Program-made: the position numbers and the translations under genes
Shown: piece after piece, positions 90 to 48,377 of the stretch
Layout: every line of letters starts with the position of its first letter
Numbering within the stretch: the first letter of the stretch is position 1
Source: Candidatus Korobacteraceae bacterium
Lineage (GTDB): Bacteria; Acidobacteriota; Terriglobia; Terriglobales; Acidobacteriaceae
Reading direction: 5' to 3'
Length of the DNA: 56,606 nucleotides
NCBI GenBank assembly: GCA_049519235.1
Contig: JBEKQY010000004.1
Coordinates: 1 to 56,606, forward strand
Notes under the pieces: model-generated
Told to the model about the DNA's origin: nothing
Database searches by the model: none
What the model saw: only the letters and a program-made list of their open reading frames with translations

Positions 90-2450
90 ATGGCCACTGT
101 CCGCAGTGAGGCGTGGCTGGAATCGCCCCGCTTGCAGGACATGGCAGACCTCGCGCTGGATCAGTTGCCCTTCGGCGTCGGCGACGCCACCGCCGGCAGC
201 GAGGACGAACTACAAGCCGTCGTGGTTGGGTCGTCCGGCGACTGCGACCTGCCGCTGAGCGTGCGCGAATCGCGTTTCTTCCGCAACATCGCCCGCCGCA
301 GTGCCAGCGGTGAAGCGCCGCGCCGCACCTTGACCGAACTGGAAGCCTTCCTCAGCGACACACGCGAAGTGTGGGAGAACAGTTGGATTCGCTTTCCCGA
401 GTCGCGCCTGAGCAAGCGCGCACTCCAGATTTTGCAAAGCGATTTGCAGGTAGCGAGAAATGGCTCCAGCAGCGAACGCTCCGATGCGCTGCGTTTTCGC
501 TTCACCCGGAACGGCGAGCCGTGGCTCCGCATACCTATCAGCTACGCGCTGAAGCTGTCGCTCGCCGACCTGGTGGGCATGCAGCCTCACATGCCGCAGG
601 CCATGCAGGCCGAAGCGTCCCGCCTGATGCGCCATTTTCTGAACGACAATACCTCGCCCGAGACAACGTCTTTTCACATCGTGGCGGGGGAGCGAACGCG
701 CTCCCTGGGCGAGCAAACCGCGCGCGAGACGGCGCGCCGCTTCTTGTTTACCTCGCTGTTGATGTCCTGGGCCAATCTGCGGTTCGGTCTGCTGGAGAGC
801 GGGCAGCGCGCCCTCGTGTACCATGCTCCCCTTCCGTCGGTGCATCAGGAAGAGCTATCGTCGTGCATCTCCGATTCGTTCTACCGCGAACTCTTCATGA
901 GTCCCTGCCTTTCAGGCTGGAGCGACGGCGAAGAAAAGTGCCAGTACATGCACCTTTGCCATCAGGTGCTCAGCCGCAGCCAGTTGAACGCAGTGGCCAA
1001 ACTGCGCGAGGCAGGCATCATCGCCAACGAATTGATCGTGCTGCCCAGCCTGTCGAACGTAAGTCTGTCCAATAACGGCATCCACATCAGCATCGGCAGC
1101 CGGCTGCTGGAAGGAAAACTTCGTGCAGGCTTCGACTTGTTGCCTGGGGATGAGAAACGGCTGGGCGATCTGGCCATCAAGATCTACGAACATTTCTTGT
1201 GTTTGTTCGTCGGCACCTACACGGCAGCTCCCTACCGGTTCGGATTTAATCAGTTCCATCCTGAACGGCTGCTGTCATTTCTGCCGCACGAGCTTGACTT
1301 CACGCACCTGCGCCTGCTGTGGCGGGAGTGGAAGGAAAAAGCGAAGCTTAGCGTCTGTGGGCATCCGGTTACGCCTTATGGGCCCGGTTGGCTGGATGGA
1401 ATGATGGCCAGGCTGTTTCGACTTCAGGGCGATTGCGTTCCCGATGCCAGGCTGCTGACCTATCCCGTGGCATGGCTGGGGAGCGAGCACTCGTCAGCAT
1501 TGGATGGCACCGCCGGAAATATCGGCCGGTTGTCATCGGAGCTCGATGAGTTGGGAATTGTGGACCAGCGGATGTCGTTTTATATGCCGCTGCGCTTGCG
1601 GGAGCGGCAGCGCGATGGCTATGCGGGCTTTGAGGCCCGCTATTACAGCTTGTTTCCCAGCTATGACGGCGATATGGCGGCCGCGGCCAATCTGCAACAG
1701 TTCTTTTTGGCCTTCGCCTACAAATTGGCGTTGCAGGGAGAAATAAGCCACCACCAGATTCCCGACGATCCCACGTCAGAGAGCGAGCGGCGGCAGCCGT
1801 TCTTTTTCTCAGCGGCGGGATTGCCTGCCTTCTACGTGCATCGAGATTCACGCAATGAACTGTTGCGCATGGTGCTTCTCAATTGCAAGAAGACGCGGCC
1901 GAGTCGCAGGCATCCGAAATATATTCGCATCGCCATCGCCGACTATCGCCGCGCGTTGCTCGCATTCGTGCAGCAAGCGGGCTCCGATCTCGCCGAGGCC
2001 ATGAACCTGCAGCCGGTGCTGGCTGAACTGGCGGAACGTTGCCAGGACGAACAACAGCATGCCAGTCGGCGCCTGGAAAAGAGTATCGCCGGCGATTCGG
2101 CGAAGAATGCTATGAAGCTCGAGGCCCGCGAGTTCAATCGCGCGGCCGAAGACTTCTATCGCGACGGCCTGCGGCGCCAGCACCTGCGCGAGGCTGTCGC
2201 CCATTTGCGCGAAGACGTGGCATATCTGGAACGCTTCGCCTGTGATGAAACAAAAATACGGCTCCGCCACGGCGTGCGTATTCAGGACTTGGCACGATTT
2301 CTTCAGGACGCTGAGAAGCGGGTGTTGACGGACGATTTGTCGCTGCCCGAAATTACCGCGCTCTTAAACCTGATGCTGGTGCTGACGGAGTGGAACCGCG
2401 CCCGGGCCGCACAGGCCGCAGAAGGACTTGATGCAACACCAGTACATTGA
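90..2450 (+). CDS. hypothetical protein, 786 aa, family not recognised
   Basis: Long uninterrupted ORF. ATG at 90 is preceded by GGGGAGG. Its last ~20 nt overlap the start of the next ORF (coupling). I can name no catalytic motif by eye. Confidence 0.6.
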   Translation: MATVRSEAWLESPRLQDMADLALDQLPFGVGDATAGSEDELQAVVVGSSGDCDLPLSVRESRFFRNIARRSASGEAPRRTLTELEAFLSDTREVWENSWIRFPESRLSKRALQILQSDLQVARNGSSSERSDALRFRFTRNGEPWLRIPISYALKLSLADLVGMQPHMPQAMQAEASRLMRHFLNDNTSPETTSFHIVAGERTRSLGEQTARETARRFLFTSLLMSWANLRFGLLESGQRALVYHAPLPSVHQEELSSCISDSFYRELFMSPCLSGWSDGEEKCQYMHLCHQVLSRSQLNAVAKLREAGIIANELIVLPSLSNVSLSNNGIHISIGSRLLEGKLRAGFDLLPGDEKRLGDLAIKIYEHFLCLFVGTYTAAPYRFGFNQFHPERLLSFLPHELDFTHLRLLWREWKEKAKLSVCGHPVTPYGPGWLDGMMARLFRLQGDCVPDARLLTYPVAWLGSEHSSALDGTAGNIGRLSSELDELGIVDQRMSFYMPLRLRERQRDGYAGFEARYYSLFPSYDGDMAAAANLQQFFLAFAYKLALQGEISHHQIPDDPTSESERRQPFFFSAAGLPAFYVHRDSRNELLRMVLLNCKKTRPSRRHPKYIRIAIADYRRALLAFVQQAGSDLAEAMNLQPVLAELAERCQDEQQHASRRLEKSIAGDSAKNAMKLEAREFNRAAEDFYRDGLRRQHLREAVAHLREDVAYLERFACDETKIRLRHGVRIQDLARFLQDAEKRVLTDDLSLPEITALLNLMLVLTEWNRARAAQAAEGLDATPVH

Positions 2451-3441
2451 GCGCAACACCGGCAACGTGGTGCGCGAGCAATTGCTCGCCGATTCGCTGA
2501 TCAATGCGCTGTACTCGCCGGCGCTGGAACGAGCTCCACTTCTGTCTCGCATGGCGTCGAGCCGGTATGTGTCCCAGGTGCTCGGCTACCTGAACTACGA
2601 CAACCTCGTCTCTTCCCGGGCGACCGGCATGCTGCGCTTTCTGAGGCAGTCGGGCATACCCCTGTCGGAGTTCGTCGGTAACCTGTCGGATTACGATACC
2701 GCCCGCAAAATCTTCGAACGCCAGATCCGCTACTGGAACTGCCGTCCTATGCCTCAGACGCCCCGTCCTGTGCTGTGTCCAGCCGATGCCCGGGCCTTGA
2801 TCGGATCAATGGAGCAGACCTCGGGGCTGTATCTGAAGCAAAAATTTTTCTCCTTCCCGGAATTGCTGGGTGAGGCCTCGGCGTGGCACAGCTCGTTTCA
2901 GAACGGTGACTACGCTGTCTTCCGGCTGACTCCGGAGAAATATCACTACACCCACAGCCCGGTTTCGGGACGCGTGCTGGACATCTACTCCGTCGAGGGC
3001 CGCTACTACTCCTGCAACCCCAATGCGGCGGTGCAAGTGATCACGCCGTTCTCCAAGAATCGCCGGGTGATAACGATCCTGGACAGCGACTGCCCCAACG
3101 GGTCAAGGGTGGGTCGCGTGGCCATGATAGAAGTCGTGGCTCTGATGGTGGGACAAATCGAGCAACGCTACAGCGAGCACCGCTACGAGAACCCGCGACC
3201 GGTGGAAAAGGCGATGTTCCTAAAGGCAGGCGCCCCCAAGGCGCTGTTCCGGCCAGGAAGCAGCACCGTGGTCTTGCTGTTTCAGGCCGGTCGAATCAGC
3301 TTCGCCCCGGACCTTGCGGAGAACCAGCGCCGCAGCGGGGTGCAGAATCGCTTCGCGCTGACGCTGGGAGAGCCTGTCACCGAGACCGATGTTGCGGTGC
3401 GCTCGTTGCTGGCAACACCGGCAGAGGAGGAACCATGCTGA
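2431..3441 (+). CDS. phosphatidylserine decarboxylase-family proenzyme (divergent)
   Basis: 'FRLTPEKYHYTHSPVSGRV' resembles the PSD His-motif region. The C-terminal 'RPGSSTVVLLF' resembles the LGST-type self-cleavage (pyruvoyl-forming) site. The ORF track opens at TTG 2428; the first ATG is at 2431. Confidence 0.7.
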   Translation: MQHQYIERNTGNVVREQLLADSLINALYSPALERAPLLSRMASSRYVSQVLGYLNYDNLVSSRATGMLRFLRQSGIPLSEFVGNLSDYDTARKIFERQIRYWNCRPMPQTPRPVLCPADARALIGSMEQTSGLYLKQKFFSFPELLGEASAWHSSFQNGDYAVFRLTPEKYHYTHSPVSGRVLDIYSVEGRYYSCNPNAAVQVITPFSKNRRVITILDSDCPNGSRVGRVAMIEVVALMVGQIEQRYSEHRYENPRPVEKAMFLKAGAPKALFRPGSSTVVLLFQAGRISFAPDLAENQRRSGVQNRFALTLGEPVTETDVAVRSLLATPAEEEPC

Positions 3442-4487
3442 ACATAATCTCCGTCGCGGCATTGGCGCTGGGATTATTCGCGCTGCTTGCATGGGGTGTG
3501 CGAACGCTTTCGTCCGAGCGCTGGCAAATGCTTGCCGCGATACCGGTCGCCAAGTCAGCCGATGGGTCGTGGCGCGGACTGAACCTCACGTTCTACGGTT
3601 TCTTCAGCGCCGCCGGCACCACTTTTGGTTTTAGCGTCATGCTGCTGTTGCTGGCCGCGCTCCGAATTCCCGCTGCCATCGGCATTGCATTAGCGCTGCT
3701 GATCGTGCTGGTGAGCGTTCCGGCGTCGCGGATTGTGGCTGCCCTCGTGGAGCGCAAACGCGACACCTTTACCGTGGCCGGAGCGGCCTTTGTGACGGCC
3801 CTGATTTTTCCGCTGGTATTAGTGGCGTTGCGGCCGCTGCTGGCTACCCTATTGCATCGCCAGATCGCCGTCCTTCCGATACTGGCGGCCGGAGCAATTG
3901 CTTACGTGCTGGGCGAGTCCGTCGGCAGGCTGGCCTGCCTCAGCTTTGGCTGCTGCTATGGCATGCCGTTGCGCGAGGCCAGGCCGGCGATCGCGCGTCT
4001 CTTCCAAACTCACCATCTGGTGGTTCAGGGAGCAACCAAGAAAGCTGCTTACGCCTCCGGACTGGCCGGCGAACCGCTGGTCCCGGTACAGGCGATTACT
4101 TCGGCCATATACGCAGTTTCGGGCGTGGCGGGGGTAGCGCTGTTTCTGTGGCAGCAGTGGCGTCTGGCAGCTCTGGTTCCGATGGTCGCAAGCTGGGGAT
4201 GGCGCGCGTGCTCGGAATCCTTGCGAGCCGACCATCGCGGCAGTTCGCGAATCTCGGCCTATCAGGTCATGGCCATTTTCTCGGTGATGTATCTCAGCGT
4301 TTTTGTGGCGCTGTTACCCCTGCCAGTGGCCCTTGAAGCCGACCTCTCCTGGGCATTCGCGCAGGTGTTTTCGGCCCCGGTCATCCTGCTGCTCCAGATC
4401 TTCTGGCTGGCCTTGTTTCTGTATTACGGACGAAGCCGGGTAACCGGATCCACGCTGTTGTTCCACGTGATCCCGGAGCGCGTGTAA
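3435..4487 (+). CDS. polytopic membrane protein, prolipoprotein diacylglyceryl transferase (Lgt)-like
   Basis: Multiple hydrophobic helices. 'GRLACLSFGCCYGMP' resembles the conserved GR-x-G-x-F-x-x-G-C-C-Y-G loop seen in Lgt-family proteins. ATG 3435 overlaps the upstream stop (ATGCTGA). Confidence 0.45.
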   Translation: MLNIISVAALALGLFALLAWGVRTLSSERWQMLAAIPVAKSADGSWRGLNLTFYGFFSAAGTTFGFSVMLLLLAALRIPAAIGIALALLIVLVSVPASRIVAALVERKRDTFTVAGAAFVTALIFPLVLVALRPLLATLLHRQIAVLPILAAGAIAYVLGESVGRLACLSFGCCYGMPLREARPAIARLFQTHHLVVQGATKKAAYASGLAGEPLVPVQAITSAIYAVSGVAGVALFLWQQWRLAALVPMVASWGWRACSESLRADHRGSSRISAYQVMAIFSVMYLSVFVALLPLPVALEADLSWAFAQVFSAPVILLLQIFWLALFLYYGRSRVTGSTLLFHVIPERV

Positions 4488-4506
4488 GACGCATGAGCGC
4501 CGAAGC

Positions 4507-6129
4507 CTACCATTTGCTCACCGAGGTAAAGGCCCAAAACAAAGAAGCCGACAAGCCGATCGAGACCGGCAAGGTGAGCCCCCATGCCATGAGCAGATTG
4601 CGTAGGGTTGCCCACTGCAAGCCGGAGCGATTAGCGGCCATGGTACCCGCAACTCCGGACGACAACACGTGCGTGGTACTCACCGGCAATCCGTAAAAGT
4701 CGGCGGCACCGATGGTCACCATGGCCGTGATTTCCGCCGCTGCTCCCTGACCGTAGGTAAGGTGATCTTTGCCGATCTTTTCGCCCACCGTGATGACGAT
4801 TCGCTTCCAACCCACCATGGTTCCCATGCCCAGCGCCAGGGCAACCGCAACCTTCACCCAGGTGGGAATGAACTTGGTGGCATTGTCAATGTACTTCTTG
4901 TAGTTGGTGAGGACCGTCCAGTCCTGCGCGCTGAACTGGGGCTTGCCCGACTTCTTCATCAAACGCAGGGCCTCGCTCACCAGGTACATATCGTTGCGGA
5001 AGTTGCGGACCCGATCGTTCGGTATGTTCGCGAGCTCGTGGTAGAGCACCACCTCGTTGGAAATGTCGTTGATCAAGCCGCGCAGCCCCAGCATCGTGTT
5101 GGGCGTGAAGTCTTTTGTCCGGACATAGTCGGCAACTTCGTCGCGCGGATCGGCCACAACTGCATCGGGCGAGACGTAGGGATCGAGCGCGCGTGCAGCC
5201 TGCTGGGACACGGCTACAAAATCCACCGATTGTTGTGCGGTGAAGGCGTGATTCAGGGCATACGCGGTGGGAACGGTGCCGATCAGGATCAGCATGATCA
5301 GTCCCATACCCTTTTGGCCGTCGTTAGAACCGTGGGCAAAACTGACTCCCGTGCAAGTAAGGATGAGCAGCCCGCGAATCCAGAAAGGAGGCGGTTCCGT
5401 TCCTTTGGGAGCTTCGTACAAGCGCTTGTCCTTAATGAAAACCTTCGACAGGGTCAACAAACTCGCGGCCAGCGCGAAGCCGACGATGGGCGACAGCAGC
5501 AGCGATTTGCCCACGTTCAAGGCTTGTCCCCAGTCCACGCCACTGGTCGCGGTGTGCGCCTGCATCAACTGGTTGGCTATGCCGACACCGATGATGGAAC
5601 CAATCAGGGTGTGCGAACTCGAGGACGGCAGGCCAAACCACCATGTGCCCAGGTTCCAGATAATGGCTGCGGTCAACAGCGCGAACACCATCGCAAAGCC
5701 CGCGCCTTTGCCCACCTGCAAGATAAGTTCCACCGGCAGCAAAGAGATGATGCCGAAGGCGACCGCACCGGTCGATAACACGACTCCGACGAAGTTCCAG
5801 AACCCCGACCACGCAACCGCAATATGCGGATCCATCGAATGGGTATAGATAACGGTTGCCACCGCGTTGGCGGTATCGTGAAAACCGTTGACAAACTCGA
5901 ATCCCAGCGCGACCAGCAGCGCGACCCCGAGAAGGACATACGGAAAGAACGAGGCGCTGTGGACCGTGCGCAGATCGGAAACCAGATGGGCCGCGGCATA
6001 GACAACGCCGATGACCATCACCACTCCGAAGATGGCCATTCCCAGTTTTCCCGGTGACTTGGCGAGCTTGGCGTGAACTCCGTGGGTCTCTGGAACCGGC
6101 GATGATAAAGGAGCAGACGTGGTCGCCAT
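4507..6129 (-). CDS. inorganic phosphate transporter, PiT family
   Basis: 'FVNGFHDTANAVATVIYT' near the N-terminus and 'GLPVSTTHVLSSGVAGT' near the C-terminus form the duplicated PiT/PHO4 signature. Many TM helices. ATG 6129 is preceded by AAGGGGA. Confidence 0.85.
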   Translation of the reverse strand: MATTSAPLSSPVPETHGVHAKLAKSPGKLGMAIFGVVMVIGVVYAAAHLVSDLRTVHSASFFPYVLLGVALLVALGFEFVNGFHDTANAVATVIYTHSMDPHIAVAWSGFWNFVGVVLSTGAVAFGIISLLPVELILQVGKGAGFAMVFALLTAAIIWNLGTWWFGLPSSSSHTLIGSIIGVGIANQLMQAHTATSGVDWGQALNVGKSLLLSPIVGFALAASLLTLSKVFIKDKRLYEAPKGTEPPPFWIRGLLILTCTGVSFAHGSNDGQKGMGLIMLILIGTVPTAYALNHAFTAQQSVDFVAVSQQAARALDPYVSPDAVVADPRDEVADYVRTKDFTPNTMLGLRGLINDISNEVVLYHELANIPNDRVRNFRNDMYLVSEALRLMKKSGKPQFSAQDWTVLTNYKKYIDNATKFIPTWVKVAVALALGMGTMVGWKRIVITVGEKIGKDHLTYGQGAAAEITAMVTIGAADFYGLPVSTTHVLSSGVAGTMAANRSGLQWATLRNLLMAWGLTLPVSIGLSASLFWAFTSVSKW

Positions 6130-6673: not shown

Positions 6674-8671
6674 ATGGAAATTTCTATACACTCTGGTGAT
6701 CTCCGCCCCGCGCTGGCCACATGTAAGACGCTCTCGAACGCGGTCGGGACCATCAACCCGCGACCTCCAGGTTTGCACAACCACCTGATCCAACTGGTTA
6801 AGCAGGGACTTGCTCGCTTGCTGGCTGGCTATACGCGGTCCCAGCGTGAGTTCAACTTATCGGTTGTTCGGTCCCTTCACATCCTCGCCAGCTCGATTGA
6901 AAAACTTCGAACCAACGTGCAGGCAATGGACGGGAGATTACCTCAGTTGGAGCGGGAAAACACAGAGCTGACGTCCACCTTGCAGAAGTGCCTGGAGATT
7001 CTGGTCAAACTGGAATCGCTGGCCAACTCGCAGAAGAACGCCGGTCCTGAGACCGCGCTCTCCGGCATCGAAAGACAAGCGCCGAGCCCGCAGGCAGCCC
7101 CCTCGGTCGGGCCCTGTGACTGCGCTGAACTGCGCAGTGCAGCGGCCGCCATTGAGAAATGCAGAAACGCTTTGGCGACCAGCAACCCGCGCCCCTCCGC
7201 GTGGCACGACAGCCTGGTCCAATTTATTCAGAAGCCGCTGGCTCGCTTGCTGGCTTGGTATGCGCGGCCCCAGCGTGAGTTCAACCTATCGGCTGTTCGA
7301 TGCCTCGACATCCTCGCCAGCTCCATGCAAAACCTCCAAATTAACTTGCAGGCAATCGACGGAAGACTACCCCAGTTGGAGCGGGACAACGCGGCGCTTA
7401 CGTCTTCCTTGCAGGAGTGCCTGGAGCTCTTCGCCAAACTGGAATCGCTGGCCACCCCGCAGAAGAACATCGATCTTGAGACCGCTCTCGAAACCGCTCT
7501 GGCCAGCATGGAAGGGCCCGCGTCCAACTCGCAGCCATCCCCCTCGGTCAAGCTGTATGACTTCGATGAACCGCACAGCGCAGTGGCCGCCACTGAGAAG
7601 CCCAGCAACGCAACCACCGCTAGCCTGTGGCCTTGGCGTGATTTCAATGCCTCCATAGGTCAATCGCTCAAAGAAGTAGTCCGCGCCGTTGGGAAGCTTT
7701 CCACTGTCATAGTTACCCTTGACTGCCGCTTGGCACAGGCGGAGAAGAGGAGCGCCACCCTGGCGGAGGCAATACAAGAGCAGCTTTCGCTCTTGCACGG
7801 GTTGGTAAAAGCGATAGTTAGCTTACAGAAGACGGCAATCCTGGAAGTCCCTGCTAGCAGGATGGAAACCGACTGGGACAAACAGGCCCGTGAGGTTTCT
7901 CAGTTCTACATCGACACGGGTCTTGGGAACGACAGAACAACTTATCTTATTGGACTGTTCGGCACCGGCCGTTTGTATGTCAATGGACTGATGCTACAGA
8001 ACAGTGGAGAAAGAGCGAAATATTTTAGGGATGGGATCCGCTTGCATCGAGGTCCGACATCTATGATCTATAGCGGCCACGCCACAAGGAGGTATGTCTC
8101 TCGCGGCCAGTTTTTGCCAGCGGTAATGAGCTGTATCTTGGAAGCGGTCAGATTGGGATTTGCCGATTTGATTTTTCTCTGTCGTCATCCCCTCGATTCG
8201 TTGCTGACAAATTGGATTTGGTGGCGGACATACATTCACGCCCACAAGGGGATTGGGGGTATCTCGGAGATTTATAAGAACACGGACAATCTATGCGCCG
8301 ATTTAGAGCAGAATTTCTCTGAATTCAAGGCCTTTGCCGAAGGCGACCCGGATTTTTTCGCGGCCGAACCAGGCACGCGATTTCTGTCTTTCCAGGAATT
8401 TGTTGAGGAAACTGCGCTTCATCTCCAATCCGCCACGCTCACGCTGCGGCTGGAAGACTTCATGGTCGATCCGCTCAAGGAATTTTCTAAGATCGTTGAA
8501 CTCATGTCGGTTGATTTTAATTCGATTCGTTTACCTATAGTCCCTCCCCATACCAAGCCTTATCGCTATTTGGCGATTAAAGACAAAGTCCCTCGATTTA
8601 GAAACTTTATCGATGGGCTGGATGCGGAGACAAAAGGACGGATTCAGAAGATCGGCTATAGTCTAGATTAA
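6674..8671 (+). CDS. coiled-coil repeat protein with C-terminal sulfotransferase-like (PAPS-type donor binding) domain
   Basis: The N-terminal ~390 aa are 2.5 tandem copies of a heptad-rich module ('..NPRP..W..L(V/I)Q..(K)..LARLL(A)WY.RPQREFNLS.VR.L.ILASS...L..N.QA.DGRLPQLER.N..LTS.LQ.CLE....KLESLA..QKN'). The C-terminal ~270 aa carry 'YLIGLFGTGRLYV' (5'-PSB-like P-loop) and 'FLCRHPLDSLLTNW' (R-x-P-x-D-x-x-x-S/T, 3'-PB-like), as in sulfotransferases. Confidence 0.6.
   Translation: MEISIHSGDLRPALATCKTLSNAVGTINPRPPGLHNHLIQLVKQGLARLLAGYTRSQREFNLSVVRSLHILASSIEKLRTNVQAMDGRLPQLERENTELTSTLQKCLEILVKLESLANSQKNAGPETALSGIERQAPSPQAAPSVGPCDCAELRSAAAAIEKCRNALATSNPRPSAWHDSLVQFIQKPLARLLAWYARPQREFNLSAVRCLDILASSMQNLQINLQAIDGRLPQLERDNAALTSSLQECLELFAKLESLATPQKNIDLETALETALASMEGPASNSQPSPSVKLYDFDEPHSAVAATEKPSNATTASLWPWRDFNASIGQSLKEVVRAVGKLSTVIVTLDCRLAQAEKRSATLAEAIQEQLSLLHGLVKAIVSLQKTAILEVPASRMETDWDKQAREVSQFYIDTGLGNDRTTYLIGLFGTGRLYVNGLMLQNSGERAKYFRDGIRLHRGPTSMIYSGHATRRYVSRGQFLPAVMSCILEAVRLGFADLIFLCRHPLDSLLTNWIWWRTYIHAHKGIGGISEIYKNTDNLCADLEQNFSEFKAFAEGDPDFFAAEPGTRFLSFQEFVEETALHLQSATLTLRLEDFMVDPLKEFSKIVELMSVDFNSIRLPIVPPHTKPYRYLAIKDKVPRFRNFIDGLDAETKGRIQKIGYSLD
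6713..7590 (+). repeat. intragenic tandem duplication, two ~429-nt units, with a degenerate partial third unit continuing to ~7845
   Basis: NPRP motifs at aa 28 and aa 171 give a 143-aa (429-nt) period. The DNA of the two units aligns by eye with many identical runs, e.g. 'cccagcgtgagttcaac', 'ccagttggagcggga', 'aaactggaatcgctggcca'. Confidence 0.75.
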
Positions 8672-8758
8672 GTATAGTGTGAATTATCAGACTATCTGCA
8701 TTTGTGTGCCATATTAAAGCAGTTTCACAGTTAGTGTAGTCCGGGACGCACGGGTGGA

Positions 8759-8886: not shown

Positions 8887-8941
8887 TCTACCCGGTCTAC
8901 ACTAACTCCGAAACTGGTATAGCCATGCCGGTCAAAAGTTC

Positions 8942-9712
8942 CTATGCACGCCGCGCAGCCCAGGCGCGAGTTACATAGGTCGTCTCAATCGCGGTCAGAC
9001 CTTCTATGCGCTTCTCTACGTAATCCAGAAACTCGCGGAATAGCTCCTGGCCTAATTGCACTTGCAGGTCGTTCACTGAGTGCCACACGCCGATATACTG
9101 CTCGGGGGTCTGGTGCACGGAATGCCTGCCTTCCAGGTACAGCACCTCGGTGAATTGCGGCTTGGCGCTCAACAGGTCGGTCAGCCGCTCGGTGATGCCG
9201 GAGCGTCCCGACGATACCCGCCTGACGTCGGGCTTGAGTCGCGTGATCTGCGCTTCGATCTCGACGAGCAGCGGGTTGGCCTCGATGAAGCGCGGATTCC
9301 ACAAGGCAACGAAGACGCCGCCCGGCCGCAGGATGCGGTGGAACTCGTCGCAGGCCTTGTCGAAATCGGCCCAGTGGAGTGAGGAGGCCATGCTGACCAG
9401 GTCGGCTGAGCTGTCCGGCAATCCAGTGGCTTCCGCCGAACCTTTGCGCCAGACAATCTCCGTACCGCGCGAGCTCTCGATTCCCTGCCCGCGCATGTCG
9501 TCATTGGGTTCCACGGCTACGACGGAATGCAGGCCGCGGGCGGCGAGGGTGCGCGTCCAAATGCCAGTGCCGGCGCCGATGTCGGCGGCATCGATGCTGG
9601 CCGCATCGCGTCCCACATAATGCAGGATCGCGGTCGCGACCTGCGGCGCATACCCAGCTCGAAACTTGGCGTAGTCGCCAGCTAGCCCGGTAAAGTCTCC
9701 GTGTTTCATCAT
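8942..9712 (-). CDS. class I SAM-dependent methyltransferase
   Basis: Motif I 'AADIGAGTGIWTRTLAARG', an acidic residue after beta-2 ('VVAVEPNDDM'), and 'LRPGGVFVALWN'. Confidence 0.85.
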   Translation of the reverse strand: MMKHGDFTGLAGDYAKFRAGYAPQVATAILHYVGRDAASIDAADIGAGTGIWTRTLAARGLHSVVAVEPNDDMRGQGIESSRGTEIVWRKGSAEATGLPDSSADLVSMASSLHWADFDKACDEFHRILRPGGVFVALWNPRFIEANPLLVEIEAQITRLKPDVRRVSSGRSGITERLTDLLSAKPQFTEVLYLEGRHSVHQTPEQYIGVWHSVNDLQVQLGQELFREFLDYVEKRIEGLTAIETTYVTRAWAARRA

Positions 9713-9775
9713 GACTGACAGCTTGCGGACAATGGTTTAAACGCCAAGTGGCTCTGTTGACATCCTGCTTGAAGG

Positions 9776-9926
9776 GGCGCGCCTTTAGGCGCGCCGTAAA
9801 TCCATCGAAACCCGCCGGCTTTAGCCGCCGAGAAGACTCGTTCTCTATGCCGCCTAAATTCGAGTTTCCTCTGTGGCTAAAGCCCGCCGTCGAGATGGTG
9901 TCGATCGGCGCGGCTGAAGCCGCGCC
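9776..9926. repeat. second cluster of REP-like GC hairpins with TTTA/TGAA loops
   Basis: Hairpin at 9776-9795: GGCGCGCC-TTTA-GGCGCGCC. An imperfect CCGCCGGC-TTTA-GCCGCCG lies near 9812-9830. Hairpin at 9907-9926: GGCGCGGC-TGAA-GCCGCGCC, 3 nt beyond the nucleotidyltransferase stop. Confidence 0.6.
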
Positions 9927-9929
9927 CCT

Positions 9930-10688
9930 TCAAACTGGATCTTCGAGCCGAAGCTCGCCCTCGCTCACCATCTTTTCGTACAGCGCCACGTCCTCCGGAT
10001 TGTCGATTTCACCCCATTGGCCATCGGTGGCGAAAGTGCCGATGGGGAGTTGCTTTCCGGCCAGCAGTCGGCGCAGCAATCCGGTCACGTCGAGGCGATC
10101 GCGGATCGCTGGGTCGAGTGCACTGACTACCGCCTCGACGGTACTCCACGCCGGAGGCGTGAATTTCAGCAGGCCCATATATTGCCCCTCGATATCTTCG
10201 ATTCGCGTCGTCCTGCCGCCGATCTCCAGCAATTGGCCCGCGGCATCGATGCGGAAAGTTTCCGCGTCGGCCAAAGGATCGGCGAAACGGCGGCTCCACA
10301 GGCGGCGCCAGGCCCGGTCGTAGCTGATGACCAACTGGCCTGGCGCATCGGCCAGACCGCGCACCAACTCACTGCGATAGAAGATGTCTCCGTAGCTGAC
10401 GATGACCGGCCCCGAGCGCAGCCAGGGAGCGGCTGCGGCGAGCGACATCACCATATTGGTTTCGGCCCATCGTGGGTTGGCGAAATAGCTGAGGCCGGGA
10501 AAATCGATCATCTCGGCGCGATAGCCGCGGACAACCCCGATCTCATCCACGCCGCCTCGCTGTAGCGCCGCAATCTGGCGCTCGATCAAAGGCTTGCCGT
10601 CGAGCTCGACCAGGCATTTCGGGCGGTCGTCGCCGCAATGTCCCATGCGGCTACCGCGACCGGCGGCGAGAATAACTGCGCGCATCAT
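9930..10688 (-). CDS. nucleotidyltransferase (LicC/sugar-phosphate NTP-transferase fold); candidate CTP:phosphoglutamine cytidylyltransferase (Cj1416-like)
   Basis: 'MRAVILAAGRGSRMG' (G-x-G-x-R loop) and 'PKCLVELDGKPLIERQI'. I place the start at ATG 10688, which forms an ATGA overlap with the upstream stop; the ORF track extends to 10745. Confidence 0.8.
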   Translation of the reverse strand: MMRAVILAAGRGSRMGHCGDDRPKCLVELDGKPLIERQIAALQRGGVDEIGVVRGYRAEMIDFPGLSYFANPRWAETNMVMSLAAAAPWLRSGPVIVSYGDIFYRSELVRGLADAPGQLVISYDRAWRRLWSRRFADPLADAETFRIDAAGQLLEIGGRTTRIEDIEGQYMGLLKFTPPAWSTVEAVVSALDPAIRDRLDVTGLLRRLLAGKQLPIGTFATDGQWGEIDNPEDVALYEKMVSEGELRLEDPV

Positions 10689-11287
10689 TCGACTCCGAAG
10701 ACTTGGCGGAACAGCAGCATGTCGGCAGGCGAGAACGGGGCGCACCGCTCAGGGTGCCACATAATCGCCGTTATCGGCTGGGTGGGATGGCGAATCGCTT
10801 TGACAACGCCGTCGGCGGCCACCGCCCAGACTTCGAGCGGCGGCTGCGAGTCAAAGGCGGCAAAGCAATGATAGCTGTTGACCTCTCTTGGCTCGCCGTC
10901 GATGCGGATGAGCTGGCATTTGGTCACATGGCCTTCGACGCGGCGTAACGGAATACCGAAGCGCTGCTGAATCATTTGCATGCCGCGACAAACGCCCAGC
11001 ACCGGCAGCCCGCGCCGCTCCGCCAAATCGAGCAGGGCATTTTCCACTGCGTCGCGTTCCGGGGCATCGCCGCCTAAAACAGCCAGATCGTTACCGCCGG
11101 TCAACACCAACCCGACAATGCCAGCCCGCTCGCACAAGGCAACAGCAGCCTCGACGACGTTGGGGAGCAATACGGGGAGCAGCCCGCAGGCCGCCAGGAA
11201 CTTGGTCCATGCTTGATCCAGGCAATCACGGCGCTCGCCATAGTCCGGATCGACCGATACCCGCTGGGTGATGGCGACCGCCTTCAT
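10685..11287 (-). CDS. class I glutamine amidotransferase / peptidase C26-fold hydrolase; candidate gamma-glutamyl-CDP-amidate hydrolase (Cj1417-like)
   Basis: Nucleophile elbow 'LPVLGVCRGMQMI' and 'IMWHPER' (His/Glu). The start at ATG 11287 (MKAVAITQR) forms an ATGA overlap with the upstream stop. Confidence 0.8.
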   Translation of the reverse strand: MKAVAITQRVSVDPDYGERRDCLDQAWTKFLAACGLLPVLLPNVVEAAVALCERAGIVGLVLTGGNDLAVLGGDAPERDAVENALLDLAERRGLPVLGVCRGMQMIQQRFGIPLRRVEGHVTKCQLIRIDGEPREVNSYHCFAAFDSQPPLEVWAVAADGVVKAIRHPTQPITAIMWHPERCAPFSPADMLLFRQVFGVE

Positions 11288-14208
11288 GCGATGACCATGA
11301 CCCTCTGGTTCGTGCAATCGAGGCACAGCTTGCGCGCTGTCTGCCATCGCTGGAACAGGGCTTCACCGGCGCCGATTACAGCGGGTATGCCGAGCTCGCC
11401 GGCGCGGATCGCCATGTGCGAATTGGCGCCGCCGAACTGGGTAACAAATCCGCTGATATCACGAGTGAAAATCCAGTCGAAGCCGGGGTCCGCGCTGGGC
11501 ACAAAAAGAATCCGTCCGGCGAAGCTCTCCGGAGGGTCACCGACTAAGGCGACCGGTGCGGTGATCTGTTTCTGGGTAATGAAATTCGGCTGGCTGGGGG
11601 GAAGGTGAAATGCGAACACTTCCTCGGGCGACGCGATGATGGGCGGAAGCACGAGATTGCGCGTGAGCGCGTGACGCTCTCTGCCCCGGGCGACACTCTC
11701 CCGCAACGCCTGGCGCACCGAGCCGCTTTCGCTGTACAGCGTGCGGACGATGTCGTAGTCAAGAAATGCACAATCCTCCGCCGATAGACCATGGTCCTCG
11801 CCCAGCTTCTTGATCAGCGACAGGGCGTCGCTCAGGCTTCGCGTAAACACGAACTTCGCGTACTCGCGGCCCTCAATGCCGGCCTTGATGAACTCGATCA
11901 AACTCAAAACGTCGATGTCAAGCTCATGTTCCTTGAGCAGTTGCTCAACGCGGCGCAACTGCTCGATGGAGAGCGCGAAGCGCTGGGGCGCAGACGCTCT
12001 CGGCCGGACACTCGACCAGTCGAAGTAGAGATCGGGCGCTTCGTCGTAGCGCGGCGACAGGATGTCGTACGTCCCTGGCCGGAGGTGGCCGTAGCGCGCC
12101 AGGAAGTCTGCCTTCGGAAGCTGCGCGAAATCCTGCCCGATGCGCGACACCACGGTATCGACACTTGCCATGAATGTGGCAGCCTCTTCGGCATTGAAAA
12201 CACCCACTTCGACGAAGGACTGGAGCAACTGGACCGCGATGAAGCCTGCCCGCGCCAGACCGGCGAACGGCAGCGTGCCGTAGCGCTTGCAGTCCTCGAT
12301 CAGCCAGTAAATGCGGCTGATCTTGTCGATCTCCGCGTTGCAGATGGTGGGAAACCGCTGTGCCAGAAGATCGATCTTGGCGCGGTCGCGCCGCCACAGT
12401 GCGCTCTCGCCATGAATGATGCGATTGGTGAGGCGCCGTAAGGCGCCCGAAAGTTCGGCAAGGTCTTCTGGAGAAAAGCCGTGCTCGGCGAGCCTGCCCA
12501 TCCGCTTCGGCAAATCGAGGGTGTAGCAGGAGAAGATGATCTCAAATTCGACCTTGTCATGGAGATGCGGCTCGGAGAGCAGGCGATCGATGTAGTAATT
12601 CACCAGACGCCCGGCGAGATCGTCGGGCACATCGCGTGGTACGAAGGAGTTGAAGCTGACCCGCACGTCGATGTAGGGCAGTCCGTGAAAGCTGACCAGC
12701 AGCGGAAAACTGCGAAGATTCTGGTAGCCGTAATTGTCCCGCTGATAGGCCCAGATCGCGTCGGTGATGAGTTCGCGATAGAGCGATAGCGAGAGCGGCC
12801 ATGGCCGCAGCCCAATGATTTCGGCTGGGTTCCAGTCCGGCATAACGCCGAATATCGCTCGGCTGCCGTGCAGATAAGGGTGCGGACGGCTGAGCAGCTC
12901 AACCTTGCGCGCGACATCGGCGAGCGCGGTTTCGACCTTCGCGTCCGCTACCTGCCCCTGGCAGTCGACGGCGAGCGGGCGGACTTGCAGAAGGTAAAGC
13001 TGCCCGTCACCGCCGACGGCGAATTCCACGTCGATTGCGTCACACGCTAGAAGGGTTTCCAGCTCGCTGACCAGAGCGATGACCGGCGCCAGCGAAGGTG
13101 GGCAGGCATCCGGCCGCGATTTGAGGCAAACAAAAGTCTCGAGATTCTCGCCGACACCGGCAGTTACGCGATCGGTCCGGCCGGAGCGGTCGTCGTAATT
13201 GATAACGAAATAGGGACCGCCGCTGGGATTGCGCGAGAAGACCACCCCGGCCATCGCCACCCGGTCAAGCATGGGCTGTACGAAGATCTGGTCGGCGTCG
13301 CTTCCGCCATCGGCAAACGAATCAATCACCCGCTCGATGGCCTGGGCCACGGCTGCGCTGCCGGCGACCCCGAGGACAGAATCGTACCTCCCTGCCTGCG
13401 AGCTTGCGGCGCCGTCCTCGCCCCGTGCGCTGCTGCGCACAATGACCCGATCCGAACCCCAGGGCGCAGCGGTGATGGCACCGAGCACGCCAGCGGCATC
13501 CGAGCGCCAATCGCTAACTGAAAACCGGACCTGCGGCAGGACGCGTCCATTGCGCAACAGCGGCGCCAGCGCCTCCAGAGATTCCGCCTTGGTTTTGAAG
13601 GCGATGAGGCGCGCCGGCTGCGCGGCATCCGCGCCATCCCGCCGGGCGCATATCGCCAGGATGCGGTCCACCGCCGTGGCAACGTCCAGCGCCCCATAAT
13701 TGTCGAGGACCAGGTCCGGCGCCTCGGGAGCCTCCGCCGGCACGTCAAGGCCAACCACGTCGCGCGCATGGCCGCGCTGGGCCCCCGCGTAGATGCCCTT
13801 GCTGTCCCGCCGCCGCAGCTCGTCTATCGGGACCCGAAGGTAGATCTCGCGATAACCGGGGATGTTCTCGCGGTTCCAACGCTGCACTTCGTGAAACAGC
13901 GAGATGGTCGCGCAGACGACATCGGCGCCCTGCTCAGCCAGCAACCGGCACAGCCGCGCATTGCGCATCGCCGAGCGCCGCCGGTCCTCTGCACTGTGGC
14001 CAAGGTCCTCGGCAATCACAGAACGGAGCGTGTCGCCATCCAGGAACGTAACCGGACGGCCCGCGGCACGCAGCCGGTTCCACAATTCTCGCCCCAAGGT
14101 TGTCTTGCCGGCGCCAGATAACCCGGTAATCCAGAAAACGTGCCCAGATGAAGCTTCATGTTTGGCCTCGAGCTGGCGTCCCGTCTTCTTTTTTATGTTC
14201 GTCAGCAT
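11284..14208 (-). CDS. fusion protein: N-terminal adenylylsulfate-kinase-like P-loop domain plus PEP-synthase/PPDK-like ATP-grasp with C-terminal swivel phosphohistidine domain (Cj1415-like + Cj1418-like)
   Basis: N-terminal 'VFWITGLSGAGKTTLGREL...LDGDTLR' (APS kinase/CysC type). 'VIVRSSARGEDG' (PPDK_N-type ATP-grasp). Extreme C-terminal 'GGANSHMAIRAGELGIPAVIGAG' (PEP-utilizer mobile His domain). ATG at 14208. Confidence 0.85.
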   Translation of the reverse strand: MLTNIKKKTGRQLEAKHEASSGHVFWITGLSGAGKTTLGRELWNRLRAAGRPVTFLDGDTLRSVIAEDLGHSAEDRRRSAMRNARLCRLLAEQGADVVCATISLFHEVQRWNRENIPGYREIYLRVPIDELRRRDSKGIYAGAQRGHARDVVGLDVPAEAPEAPDLVLDNYGALDVATAVDRILAICARRDGADAAQPARLIAFKTKAESLEALAPLLRNGRVLPQVRFSVSDWRSDAAGVLGAITAAPWGSDRVIVRSSARGEDGAASSQAGRYDSVLGVAGSAAVAQAIERVIDSFADGGSDADQIFVQPMLDRVAMAGVVFSRNPSGGPYFVINYDDRSGRTDRVTAGVGENLETFVCLKSRPDACPPSLAPVIALVSELETLLACDAIDVEFAVGGDGQLYLLQVRPLAVDCQGQVADAKVETALADVARKVELLSRPHPYLHGSRAIFGVMPDWNPAEIIGLRPWPLSLSLYRELITDAIWAYQRDNYGYQNLRSFPLLVSFHGLPYIDVRVSFNSFVPRDVPDDLAGRLVNYYIDRLLSEPHLHDKVEFEIIFSCYTLDLPKRMGRLAEHGFSPEDLAELSGALRRLTNRIIHGESALWRRDRAKIDLLAQRFPTICNAEIDKISRIYWLIEDCKRYGTLPFAGLARAGFIAVQLLQSFVEVGVFNAEEAATFMASVDTVVSRIGQDFAQLPKADFLARYGHLRPGTYDILSPRYDEAPDLYFDWSSVRPRASAPQRFALSIEQLRRVEQLLKEHELDIDVLSLIEFIKAGIEGREYAKFVFTRSLSDALSLIKKLGEDHGLSAEDCAFLDYDIVRTLYSESGSVRQALRESVARGRERHALTRNLVLPPIIASPEEVFAFHLPPSQPNFITQKQITAPVALVGDPPESFAGRILFVPSADPGFDWIFTRDISGFVTQFGGANSHMAIRAGELGIPAVIGAGEALFQRWQTARKLCLDCTNQRVMVIA

Positions 14209-33619: not shown

Positions 33620-36600
33620 ATGGCCGATGCAATCGCGATCATCGGGCTAGGATGCGAATACCCAGACGCTTCTACGCCCGTAGAGTTGTGGCACAGCGTT
33701 CTGGCACAACGGCGGAGTTTTCGCCGCATTCCCCGGGAAAGACTTGATCTGGAAGCGTACTGGTCGCCGGACCGAACGGACTGTGATCGCACATACTGCA
33801 CCAAGGCGGCGCTGCTCAAGAACTTTTCCTTTGACCGCGCAGCTTTTGGCATATCGGGCGCTACCTTTCGCGCCACTGATCTTGCGCATTGGCTGGCGCT
33901 GTCCACTGCCGCCAAGGCACTGAACGAGGCATTTGCCGACAGCGAGATCGTGCATTGGCGGGAAACGACCGGCGTATTCGTCGGAAATTCGCTGACCGGG
34001 GAGTTTTCCCGCGCCAGTTGTCTTCGCGTCCGCTGGCCTTTTGTCGAGAGTGTTCTGGAAGGACAACTGCGAGCACAAGGCTGGTCCGACAGCGACGCTG
34101 CGGACTTTTTGCGGCGATGCGAAGAACAGTACAAGGCGCACTTTGAGCCGTTTTCCGAGGACACTCTTCCCGGTGGACTTTCCAACACCATCGCTGGCCG
34201 GATCTGCAATTTCTTCGATCTGAAGGGCGGCGGATATGTGCTGGACGGCGCCTGCGCGTCGTCGCTGCTGGCCGTCATCAACGGTTGTTCCGCTCTGGAG
34301 TCGCGCGACCTGAATGTTGCCATCTGTGGCGGAGTTGATCTCAGCCTGGATCCGTTCGAGCTGGTCGGCTTTGCCCGCAACGGCGCGCTCGCCGCCGATG
34401 AAATGAGGGTCTTCGACAGCAACCCGACCGGGTTCCTGCCTGGAGAAGGCTGCGGATTTGTGGTGATGATGCGCCTCCAGGATGCGCTGGCCGCAGGCTG
34501 CAATGTTCGCGGAGTCATTCGCGGCTGGGGCATTTCGTCTGACGGGCAAGGGGGCATGACCCGGCCCGAGCCGCAAGGACAGTTGCTGGCGCTGACGCGC
34601 GCCTATCGGCGGGCGGGCCTCGATTCATCCCAGGTTCCGTATTTCGAGGCCCATGGTACGGGGACGGCGGCCGGGGATGACGCCGAACTCACCGCGCTCG
34701 CCGAAGCCGTGCGATCTCCATCGGGGAGCCCCGCCGTCGTCAGCTCCATCAAGGCCATCATCGGACACACCAAGGCGGCAGCGGGAATCGCCGGGTTGAT
34801 GAAAGCCATGATGGCTTTGGAATTCGGGACACTGCCTCCTACGACTGGTTGCATTACTCCACACCGAATTCTGACCGAGAAGCCGGAACTGCTGCGGGCG
34901 CAATCGGAGTCTTCGTCGTGGCCGCAGGACCGCGAATTGCTTGCCGGAGTTAGCGCCATGGGCTTTGGCGGAATCAACACCCATGTGGTGTTGCAGAGCG
35001 CCGGCGCCGTTCCACGGCAAATTCCGGCCTCCATGCGAGCTGCATGCCATTCGTCTCAAGACGCGGAGCTGTTCCTGTTTTCTGCGGACACCTCGGCGGC
35101 ACTGCAAGCGGCAGTCGATTCCGTAGTCACGAAGGCGGCATCGCTATCGGCCGCGGAATTGACGGACTTGAGCGCTTACCTGATTCGCCGCACAGGGCGC
35201 GGCCAGTGGAAAGCCGCGTTGGTCGCCCGCACTGCCGAAGAATTGAGCCGGGAAGCAGCAGGGCTAGCGAGCTGGATCGGCGCCGGAATAACGAATCGAT
35301 ATCAATACAACGACGGCATCTTCTTGTCGAGCGAAAACAGGCGCCTGCGGCTCTGCTATCTGTTTCCTGGGCAGGGAGTATCCTATTGCGCGGACGATTG
35401 GCCGCTCTACAGCAGACTGGTGGGCGATGGAGCGCTGACCGAATTCGCGCCTCTGTCCGCGGACGCTGGAGAAACTGAGAAAGCTCAGGTCGGGATCTCG
35501 CTGCAGTGCCTGAAGCAGTTGCGGGTGCTCTCCTCGTTGGCAATTCAGGCCGACGCTGCCATTGGCCATAGCGTAGGCGAACTCGTGGCGTTGTGTTGGT
35601 CCGGCACCATTGCTGAATCGCAATTGCTGGAGATGGTGCAGGCTCGAGGCCGCGTCATGCATCACTGCTCGCCTTCGGGCGGAGCGATGATCGCGGTGAT
35701 GGCGAGCGCTGCCAGCGTCAACGGATTTCTTCCCGCCGAGACCGTCATCGCGGCGCTCAACGGAAGCCACATCGTCGTATCCGGGCCTGTAGAGCTGATT
35801 GCCAAGGCAGAGGCTATCTGCCTAGAGAAAAACATCCATACCGTACGGCTCCCCGTGAAGTATGCATTTCATTCGCCGGCCTTCGCGCCGGCCGCAAAGT
35901 TGTTTGCGGCTGAACTTGAACATCATGCCTTTCAAAAGCCCACGAGAACAGTTTTTTCGACCGTGACCGGAAACGTATTTCGGGAAGATGCCGACCTCGT
36001 CCGTCACCTATCAGAACAGATCATCAACCCCGTCCGGTTCGAATCTGCGGTTCAGCAGGCTTCGGCAGTGGTCGACCTGTTCCTGGAAGTGGGCTCGCCG
36101 GGCGTGCTGCGTGATATGGTGCAAGCTGTCTCAGAGGTCCCGGTAATTAGCTGGACTCCTCGCAGCGACACAGGCTTGCTCACCACGGCTGCTGTCCTGC
36201 ACGTGTCTGGATCTCCAGTCGATCTTCGGCGCCTGGTGACAACGCGCTTTGTCCGCGACTTCTCTCCTGACGCGCGATTCGATTTTCTCCGGAATCCCTG
36301 CGAATCCCTGGAGGATTCCCAGCGCGAGCGGAAGGCCTGCCGCGTACCTCAAGCTGTTCGTCCTGAAGAACCGGTTGTTGCTGCATCCATAATCCCGGCG
36401 GGGATGCAGACTGGCAATGTTCGGCAAGCGGCCTTAGACAAATTGCTGGAGATTGTCTCAAGGAAGACAGAGTTACCGAAGGACCGGCTACAGCCCTCGA
36501 TGAACCTGTTGACCGATTTGCATTTGAGCTCCATTACGGTGGCGCAGATCGCGATCGAAACCGCAAGGGCATTGGGTAGGAAGCCGCTTCTGGCGCCTAC

Positions 36601-47365: not shown

Positions 47366-47417
47366 CGCCTAAGCAAATGCATTCATCCAGGATCACAACA
47401 TCGAAAGGAGATTAAAG

Positions 47418-48377
47418 ATGCAAGCTCGTATGAACAGGACTCATGTATGGAAGCGCTTCGCCGCAATCGCTCTACTGGTTGTGCTCGGCTTCGGAATGGC
47501 AGTGATGGAGGCAGCGACCGAGGCCCTCGCAGCCGAAAAGACAACCCAGATTACGTTTGACACCCCGGCCGCGGGAGGCGCTGCGCTGGTTCAGGCAGCA
47601 AAGGATGACGACGAACTGGCCCTCTCAGGAATCTTGGGCGTCGATACCAGGACGCTGCTCTCCAGTGGAGACAAGAAACAGGACAAGGCTGACCTTCAGG
47701 CGTTCGCCGCCAAGTACGAAAAGATGAACCGGTGGGTCGAGATGAGCGACGGCACGCGCCTGCTCTACATCGGGGCCGACAATTTCGCCTTCCCGGTTCC
47801 CCTCGCGCAGGACTCCTCGGGCCGGTGGTACTTCGACAGTATCGCCGGCGCGCAGGAGATTCGGGCGCGGGACATCGGGCGCAACGAGCTGCTGGCCATC
47901 GATGCCTGCGAGGCGCTCGCCAATGCGGAACAGGTGTACTTCGCGATGAACAGCAACGCGCCGGCATACGCGCAGCGCATCATCAGCACGAAGGGCAAGC
48001 GCGATGGGCTGTACTGGCCGGCGTGGGCATCGCAGTCGCCCAGTCCGCTGGCGGCGCTGGACGATTTCGCCCAATCGTTCCGGGCTTCCGCCTCTCCTGA
48101 TCCGCCGTTCGTGATTGACGGCTACCGCTTCCGCGTCCTGACGTCGCAGGGTGACAACGCTCCTGGCGGAGCACGGAACTACGTGACTAACGGCAAGCTG
48201 ACCGAAGGCTTCGCCGTGCTGGCCACGCCGGTGAAGTACGCGGAGACGGGAATCATGACCTTCATGGTTGGACCGGATGGGACTATCTACCAGCAGGACT
48301 TCGGGCCGGATACGGCAAAGATCGCCGGCTCCATCCGGGCATACGATCCCAACGACGACTGGTCGCCGGTTGAGTAG
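47418..48377 (+). CDS. DUF2950-family secreted protein
   Basis: Signal peptide. 'DSSGRWYFD' and 'GYRFRVLTSQGDNAPGGARNYVTNGKLTEGFAVLATPVKYAETGIMTFMVGPDGTIYQQDFG' match my memory of the DUF2950 core. This family is the usual partner of DUF3300 genes. Confidence 0.7.
   Translation: MQARMNRTHVWKRFAAIALLVVLGFGMAVMEAATEALAAEKTTQITFDTPAAGGAALVQAAKDDDELALSGILGVDTRTLLSSGDKKQDKADLQAFAAKYEKMNRWVEMSDGTRLLYIGADNFAFPVPLAQDSSGRWYFDSIAGAQEIRARDIGRNELLAIDACEALANAEQVYFAMNSNAPAYAQRIISTKGKRDGLYWPAWASQSPSPLAALDDFAQSFRASASPDPPFVIDGYRFRVLTSQGDNAPGGARNYVTNGKLTEGFAVLATPVKYAETGIMTFMVGPDGTIYQQDFGPDTAKIAGSIRAYDPNDDWSPVE

Follow-up and report, generated by a model that had tools for sequence, protein, structure and literature searches.

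A sulfotransferase-fold protein beside methyl-phosphoramidate genes of Acidobacteriota as a candidate phosphoramidate transferase

A 56,606-nucleotide (nt) stretch of DNA from a Candidatus Korobacteraceae bacterium of the Acidobacteriota (GenBank assembly GCA_049519235.1, contig JBEKQY010000004.1, positions 1 to 56,606, forward strand; this whole stretch is hereafter called the window) carries an open reading frame (ORF) for a 665-amino acid (aa) protein that converges with four downstream minus-strand genes resembling those with which Campylobacter jejuni makes methyl phosphoramidate (MeOPN). The question that this locus raises is what the 665-aa protein does and whether it uses the product of its neighbors. 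According to a 2019 review (PMC6429109), Campylobacter is so far the only genus in which sugars modified with MeOPN have been identified; Cj1416-1418-like genes are also on record from Borg elements (bioRxiv 10.1101/2024.11.05.622173). In the literature that we searched, the phosphoramidate transfer step is biochemically characterized in no organism, and neither a sulfotransferase-fold protein tied to this pathway nor the gene cassette in Acidobacteriota is described. The pathway itself is already known from C. jejuni; new here is the sulfotransferase-fold family linked to it in Acidobacteriota. We consider it likely that the window protein is a transferase using 3'-phospho-CDP-amidate (CDP, cytidine diphosphate) within a five-gene MeOPN-type cassette. 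Phosphoramidate transfer is the probable activity because a sulfotransferase-type fold is combined with near-constant adjacency to genes for a donor shaped like 3'-phosphoadenosine 5'-phosphosulfate (PAPS). The ORF, its convergent arrangement and its overall domain plan were described in an earlier, sequence-based note (the original prediction), and all three stand; the features are collected in Table 1.

The 665-aa protein yielded zero matches against Pfam, NCBIfam, and PADLOC, and the assignment of its C-terminal domain comes from structure prediction and profile comparison. A domain-only AlphaFold2 model built on a diverse alignment reached a predicted local distance difference test (pLDDT) score of 92.8 and a predicted template modeling (pTM) score of 0.90, superseding an earlier run on a shallow alignment that included a helical module and gave a pLDDT of 65 and weak fold matches only. 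The best 50 Foldseek matches in the PDB were all PAP(S)-dependent sulfotransferases (E 2e-6 to 3e-3, probability about 1.0), with LGS1, SULT2B1b, SULT1E1, 3-OST-1, StaL, and TPST2 among the matches. By its predicted structure, the domain thus belongs to the sulfotransferase-type fold class, as had been proposed from motifs. Searched as a single sequence against PDB sequences, the protein gave a weak sulfotransferase match only (E=0.018); a family profile that took in members down to 22% identity reached the sorghum sulfotransferase LGS1 at E=9e-7 and many SULTs at marginal E-values.

The motifs are consistent with this fold. G432, R433, E579, and E594 are invariant in the family, including members down to 22% identity, and G430, H469, R504, P506, and S572 are nearly so. 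In the profile alignment, LIFVYRHPLDSLLTNW falls on the SULT 3'-phosphate-binding motif, LIFLCRHPLDSLLT of the window protein aligns with SULT IVYVCREPKDVLVS and VIYLMRNPRDVLVS, and 'LRFEDF..DP' is paired with SULT 'L.YEDL..D'. RHPLDSLLT, earlier read as a 3'-phosphate-binding (3'-PB) motif, retains that reading by its alignment with SULT 'RNPxDxxVS'. For GLFGTGRLY, which had been labeled a 5'-phosphosulfate-binding (5'-PSB) motif, the label is right in part: 'GLFGTGR' forms a strand-loop-helix P-loop in the model, but its family form is G-[TS]-G-R and not PKSGTT. The classical PK(S/T)GTT motif is absent, since the loop has an invariant Arg as its basic residue where the Walker lysine would stand.

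The second line of evidence is the gene neighborhood. Window proteins were compared by BLASTP with one C. jejuni capsule locus (L090), which was reached from a published primer (PMC3907429) through a metagenome contig to an N-terminal query. Judging by these BLASTP matches, Cj1421/Cj1422 are the only C. jejuni MeOPN genes that have no homologue in the cassette; the neighbors had been predicted to make a Cj1415-1418-type donor, and they are true homologues of Cj1415-Cj1420 (29-41% identity). The 974-aa fusion protein scores 946 bits against NF004508, the Cj1418-type equivalog model (cut-off 501), and 177 bits against NF004041, the Cj1415-type kinase subfamily (cut-off 127), with BLASTP identities of 41% over 784 aa to Cj1418 and 39% to Cj1415. 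The best NCBIfam match of the amidotransferase is NF045546, gamma-glutamyl-CDP-amidate hydrolase, below that model's cut-off. The two kinases are fused in most Acidobacteriota loci; Campylobacter and two distant clusters (L087, L088) encode them separately.

The family to which the window protein belongs is small and unannotated: an exhaustive HMMER search of 1.84 billion cluster representatives returned only 108 relatives, and 146 came from a scan that took one genome from each species. Context was counted in 79 loci kept from these 146 relatives, with pathway genes located by tblastn. Almost all of the 79 are from metagenome-assembled genomes (MAGs) of peat- and bog-soil Acidobacteriota (Acidobacteriaceae, Bryobacterales, Korobacteraceae, Acidoferrales), with a few from other phyla. 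All four pathway genes lie within about 10 kb in 44 loci, 40 of them with the convergent layout of the window, and a partial set interrupted by a contig end was found in 10 more. The family and the pathway gene set therefore stand side by side in 54 of the 79 loci; a further 12 have zero pathway genes and flanks too short to judge. The other flanking genes of the window are never conserved across related loci.

The strongest test of this context is provided by three distant relatives, which also sit with genes for APS-kinase-like (APS, adenosine 5'-phosphosulfate), glutamine-kinase-like, amidotransferase, nucleotidyltransferase, and methyltransferase proteins. Two of the three share 29-32% identity with the window protein over the domain. 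All three differ from it in the N-terminal region, which has 'FD..Y...Y..HY..G' repeats, and in their clusters the kinases are unfused and the gene order is another one. Together with the 54 loci, they decisively contradict the notion that orthologues might never co-occur with Cj1415-1418-type genes, which the original prediction had named as grounds for abandoning the assignment.

From these data we propose the following reaction sequence. The fused kinase would phosphorylate glutamine on its amide nitrogen, the nucleotidyltransferase would convert the product into CDP-glutamine, the amidotransferase-like hydrolase would free CDP-amidate, and the APS-kinase-like domain would add a 3'-phosphate; this donor-making chemistry has been established with the C. 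jejuni homologues and is carried over to the cassette by homology. The C-terminal domain of the window protein would then bind this PAPS-shaped donor, the R504/T512 motif holding the 3'-phosphate and the GxGR433 P-loop the 5'-diphosphate. Phosphoramidate would be passed to an acceptor hydroxyl, with His469 probably acting as the base, and cytidine 3',5'-bisphosphate would be released. The O-methyl group would be supplied by the adjacent methyltransferase. One of the distant clusters (the contig of relative P0178, 8393-9178) adds a CysQ-like Inositol_P gene among its phosphoramidate genes, and such an enzyme could be suited to the disposal of the bisphosphate by-product.

The comparison with PAPS sulfotransferases (cytosolic SULTs, plant SOT/LGS1, heparan 3-OST, StaL) runs in both directions. 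With them the modeled window domain has in common the fold, the 3'-phosphate-binding R...[ST] motif, a YEDL-type motif, and the presumed form of the donor, also a 3'-phospho-nucleoside 5'-diphospho-X. In contrast, the donor predicted for the window protein is cytidine-based, the transferred group would be phosphoramidate, the P-loop is G-[TS]-G-R instead of PK(S/T)GTT, and sequence identity is about 12-17%.

The C. jejuni proteins Cj1421 and Cj1422, genetically proven transferases, are the other natural reference. The window protein occupies their slot in the cassette: in both cases, a transferase gene, proposed as such in the window, stands beside the Cj1415-Cj1420 genes or their homologues. 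Direct comparison gave no significant similarity. Cj1421 and Cj1422 match both DUF8374 (PF28160, N-terminal) and DUF2972 (PF11186, C-terminal), whereas the window protein is unmatched by either model even at E up to 10; BLASTP against the two gave E of 5 or more, and hhalign of the window family with five Campylobacter sequences gave E 0.16-0.42 at a probability below 1%. A Cj1421-like profile had zero matches, sulfotransferases included, among PDB sequences. The N-terminal regions are unlike, and the C. jejuni copies have a homopolymeric G tract, whereas the window ORF contains neither a G7 nor a C7 run and thus no poly-G phase-variation tract.

The Campylobacter Cj1421/Cj1422-like proteins (L090:11881-13749, L090:10417-11802, L094:8053-13852) conserve 'YEF....G.SG..A', 'VRDPISRLKT.VNH', and 'YIDM.EI', and the best, non-significant alignment to the window family is colinear over three look-alike pairs ('G.SG..A' with 'GTGR', 'VRDPISRLKT' with 'YRHPLDSLLT', and 'YIDM.EI' with 'LRFEDF'). 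These proteins may hide a very divergent sulfotransferase-like core, although the statistics are not significant. Since neither BLASTP nor profile-profile comparison detects a relationship, the window family is, on present evidence, best regarded as a distinct transferase family in the Cj1421/Cj1422 slot.

Several observations weigh against the proposed assignment. The Foldseek template modeling (TM) scores to sulfotransferases are modest (0.40-0.51), the P-loop is without the classical PKSGTT lysine, and the Pfam models Sulfotransfer_1 to _5 do not match the window protein even at E up to 10. Homology to Cj1421/Cj1422 is undetectable by BLASTP or hhalign, as described above, and the MeOPN-attaching step had not been reconstituted as of 2025, being uncharacterized also in C. 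jejuni (PMC12409886). Thirteen of the 79 loci are local orphans, with zero pathway genes within 8-10 kb and at least 8 kb on both flanks, and at least one of these belongs to a genome with the cassette on another contig. Finally, the fusions of long relatives to a BrxC-like segment are unexplained by a simple role in glycan decoration.

The acceptor is the less certain part of the proposal. The original prediction placed phosphoramidate on a glycan terminus; the transfer role is backed by fold and context, whereas the glycan has its backing in an analogy with short relatives. The genome scan contains short forms devoid of any module, and in several loci they are the last gene of co-directional operons in which genes for GT4 glycosyltransferases and methyltransferases abound. 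Among the contextual hints that the acceptor is a glycan, the best is the co-directional operon L047:31-10753, which encodes five GT4 glycosyltransferases, one methyltransferase of the FkbM type and further methyltransferases, and has a 304-aa short form without the module as its last gene. By this analogy, a glycan acceptor is plausible for the short-form relatives that end glycosyltransferase operons and is supported for them only. For the clade of the window protein, a glycan is the leading guess, itself well short of an even chance.

A different acceptor is at the center of the alternative that survives best, in which the protein would be the effector of a conflict- or defense-type system that phosphoramidates protein, nucleic acid, or a small molecule, with the module and a BrxC-like ATPase used for target sensing or assembly. 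We regard this as unlikely; one point in its favor is the architecture of relatives. In a survey of the 120 closest relatives, 60 are at least 880 aa long, and the two of these that were tested carry the first half of the BrxC/PglY ATPase of bacteriophage exclusion (BREX) systems ahead of the module (PADLOC E=1e-117 and 6e-87), covering BrxC profile positions 6-542 of 1180 in both. A BrxC-like segment lies directly upstream of the domain in 20 of the 79 genome loci, and the long BrxC-type forms (relatives P0025, P0029, P0067; loci L002:10001-12883, L018, L024, L026, L035, L037) adjoin the same phosphoramidate cassette. The window protein differs from them in having no BrxC part, with 0 PADLOC matches. 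A BREX component was rejected, since PADLOC finds nothing in the window protein and other BREX genes are not conserved nearby.

The distribution of the family can also be read in favor of a conflict system. Several paralogues per genome occur, in addition to the orphan copies, and zero glycan genes lie near the window gene. When loci L008-L086 are set against window 8942-14208, the cassette proteins share 70-93% identity across orders and even phyla: in Acidobacteriaceae, Bryobacterales, and Acidoferrales, and likewise in MAGs labeled Nevskia, Binataceae, and Eremiobacteraceae. Because such similar cassettes have unshared flanking genes, their sequences suggest horizontal spread, and transposases are found near some copies (L047:18861-20174; IS66 in L005). 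However, no other BREX or defense genes are conserved near related loci, searches of the IMG/VR viral contigs and the PLSDB plasmids returned no relatives, the short forms end GT4-rich operons, and capsule decoration is the only known use of the pathway. In the window, no flanking repeats delimiting a mobile element were found. A bolder version, according to which the family comprises previously unrecognized sulfotransferase-fold phosphoramidate transferases whose BrxC-fused, mobile, multi-copy members act on protein or nucleic acid as a new methyl-phosphoramidate conflict system, is something of a long shot.

The N-terminal part of the window protein invites another alternative, which had been put forward in the original prediction. 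E. coli O9a WbdD has a long heptad region and a domain that adds a phosphorus-containing cap, and in the window protein a long heptad region is likewise joined to a domain proposed to add a phosphorus group. As a WbdD-like molecular ruler, its coiled-coil repeats would set glycan chain length and its catalytic domain would cap the chain with phosphoramidate, the repeat number tuning the spacing. The repeats themselves are well founded. Self-comparison of the protein gives a top offset of 143 aa (BLOSUM sum 316, every other offset at most 56), and at the DNA level 6690-6989 matches 7119-7418 (300 nt, 74% identity, spacing 429) and 7041-7170 matches 7482-7611 (73%, spacing 441); Tandem Repeats Finder found nothing in the ORF because the copies are too diverged. 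Hidden Markov model (HMM) matches of the module are full at aa 6-121 and 148-264 and partial at aa 315-386 (HMM positions 52-128), so the earlier description as 2.5 tandem copies of a 143-aa heptad-rich module with a 429-nt period is accurate. By eye, about half of the residues agree between copies 1 and 2 (local alignment score 364), and the degenerate copy 3 lacks about 26 aa, namely the 'NPRP..WH..LARLLAWY' piece.

The module is a conserved unit in which the motif NPRPxGWHN...LARLLAWY precedes a long heptad helix. Each module has a Pro-free heptad stretch of about 70-80 aa, its coiled-coil character being judged by hydrophobic periodicity: the 3.5-residue signal is 4-8 times background at aa ~45-125 and ~316-392, about 3-4 times at aa ~190-265, and zero in the Pro-rich linkers between them. 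In the AlphaFold2 model that includes it, the last stretch is a single 69-residue helix (model residues 30-98, aa 319-387). A ruler would profit from these helices and from a module number that varies from 0 to 3 among relatives, with module copies in relative P0017 that look almost identical by eye and therefore suggest recent duplication.

The copy-number survey, in which the 120 closest relatives were scored with the module HMM, speaks against it. One module is present in 89, two in 16, and three in 15; among relatives of about 360-579 aa, 34 have one and 1 has two, at 580-760 aa 15 have three, 3 have two, and 7 have one, and at 880 aa or more 48 have one and 12 were scored as two. To this are added the module-less short forms of the genome scan, the conserved non-coiled-coil part of the module with its own motif, and the partial deletion of copy 3. 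No transmembrane segment was found in the 665-aa protein, where an amphipathic anchor was not looked for (the maximum KD19, 1.76, falls on a strand in the core of the catalytic domain). The ruler is further unsupported because polymerase, ABC transporter (Wzm/Wzt), and glycosyltransferase genes are all absent near the gene in the window and are not conserved as neighbors in related loci either. Compared with WbdD, moreover, the catalytic fold differs, and the coiled coil is N-terminal and modular. We therefore judge the ruler very improbable. More economically, the heptad modules most likely serve oligomerization or targeting instead of chain-length measurement.

Hardly credible, in turn, is an ordinary PAPS-dependent sulfotransferase that neighbors the cassette by chance and is fed by the APS-kinase-like domain: the fold matches sulfotransferases and an APS-kinase-family domain is adjacent, but that domain passes the Cj1415-type cut-off (177 vs. 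127 bits), fails the apsK model (121 bits, cut-off 138.7), and forms one protein with a Cj1418-type glutamine kinase, the window ORFs that were scanned yielded no ATP-sulfurylase, the linkage to the whole phosphoramidate gene set holds down to 29% identity, and the Pfam sulfotransferase models are unmatched. Phosphoramidate transfer from 3'-phospho-CDP-amidate remains the reading that we prefer for the window protein.

Table 1. Features of the candidate transferase gene and the adjacent cassette (positions in the window)
Feature	Positions	Strand	Basis or remark
ORF of the candidate phosphoramidate transferase (665 aa): three helical modules, then sulfotransferase-fold domain	6674..8671	+	ATG start
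Helical module copy 1 (aa 6-121), with NPRPPGLHN (nt 6755-6781) and ~75-aa heptad helix	6689..7036	+	
Helical module copy 2 (aa 148-264), with NPRPSAWHD (nt 7184-7210)	7115..7465	+	
Helical module copy 3, truncated (aa 315-386); long heptad helix only, NPRP/WH segment deleted	7616..7831	+	
C-terminal alpha/beta domain (aa 409-665), sulfotransferase-type fold	7898..8668	+	AlphaFold2, Foldseek, family profile
P-loop GLFGTGRLY (aa 427-435); putative site for 5'-diphosphate and transferred group	7952..7978	+	Conservation; strand-loop-helix in model
YSGHAT with nearly invariant His469; candidate catalytic base	8069..8086	+	Conservation; role suggested by SULT chemistry
RHPLDSLLT (aa 504-512), 3'-phosphate-binding-type motif	8183..8209	+	Aligns with SULT 'R(N/E)PxDxxVS'
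LRLEDF motif, E594 invariant	8444..8461	+	Aligns with SULT 'L.YEDL' motif
Hairpin between the convergent genes, 21-nt arms, 95% complementary, 3-nt loop	8800..8844	.	
S-adenosylmethionine (SAM)-dependent methyltransferase	8942..9712	-	Cj1420 homologue, 39% identity; Cj1419, 34%
Nucleotidyltransferase (NTP_transf_3)	9930..10745	-	Cj1416 homologue, 36% identity over 249 aa
Class-I glutamine amidotransferase/C26 protein	10685..11347	-	Cj1417 homologue, 29% identity
974-aa fusion, APS-kinase-like + PPDK_N/PEP-utilizers: Cj1415-type kinase (aa 18-185) and Cj1418-type L-glutamine kinase (aa 201-972)	11284..14208	-	

The hairpin between the convergent genes is possibly a bidirectional terminator. It is nested in a 31-nt inverted repeat (8715-8745 / 8891-8921), and the gap between the methyltransferase and nucleotidyltransferase genes contains further inverted repeats of 35 nt (9762-9796 / 9906-9940) and 27 nt (9814-9840 / 9861-9887). 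In 21 loci, a family of ~430-aa proteins that is absent from the window adjoins the cassette (for example L010:8115-9443 and L049:6692-7972). Its members have a Tat-like (twin-arginine translocation) signal, RREFGATVLG, and DPQ, GD, and GNHD motifs that resemble those of metallophosphoesterases by eye; zero matches were obtained against Pfam and PDB.

The remainder of the window contains genes of other kinds. Upstream of the 665-aa ORF (90-2450 and 2428-4487 on the plus strand, 4507-6129 on the minus strand) are a 786-aa ORF unmatched in any library, a phosphatidylserine-decarboxylase-like protein, an Lgt-like membrane protein, and a PHO4 phosphate transporter, and the genes of this region (90-6129) are not conserved beside the cassette elsewhere. 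A 1914-aa type I polyketide synthase module (KS-AT-KR-DH) is encoded about 20 kb from the cassette (33620-39364, plus strand), and an adjacent DUF3300 and DUF2950 gene pair lies at 45371-48377 (plus strand).

Taken as proposed here, an unannotated sulfotransferase-fold family is tied to a complete phosphoramidate donor pathway in dozens of genomes of peat-soil Acidobacteriota. The link fits chemical logic, in that the 3'-phosphate on CDP-amidate would exist for use by a PAPS-type fold, and it offers a concrete candidate for an uncharacterized enzymatic step. The short members, of about 250-300 aa, are tractable for a first in vitro assay of phosphoramidate transfer, and the fusions to half of BrxC raise a new question about the family. 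If the assignment is correct, it implies that MeOPN-like modifications would occur in abundant soil bacteria.

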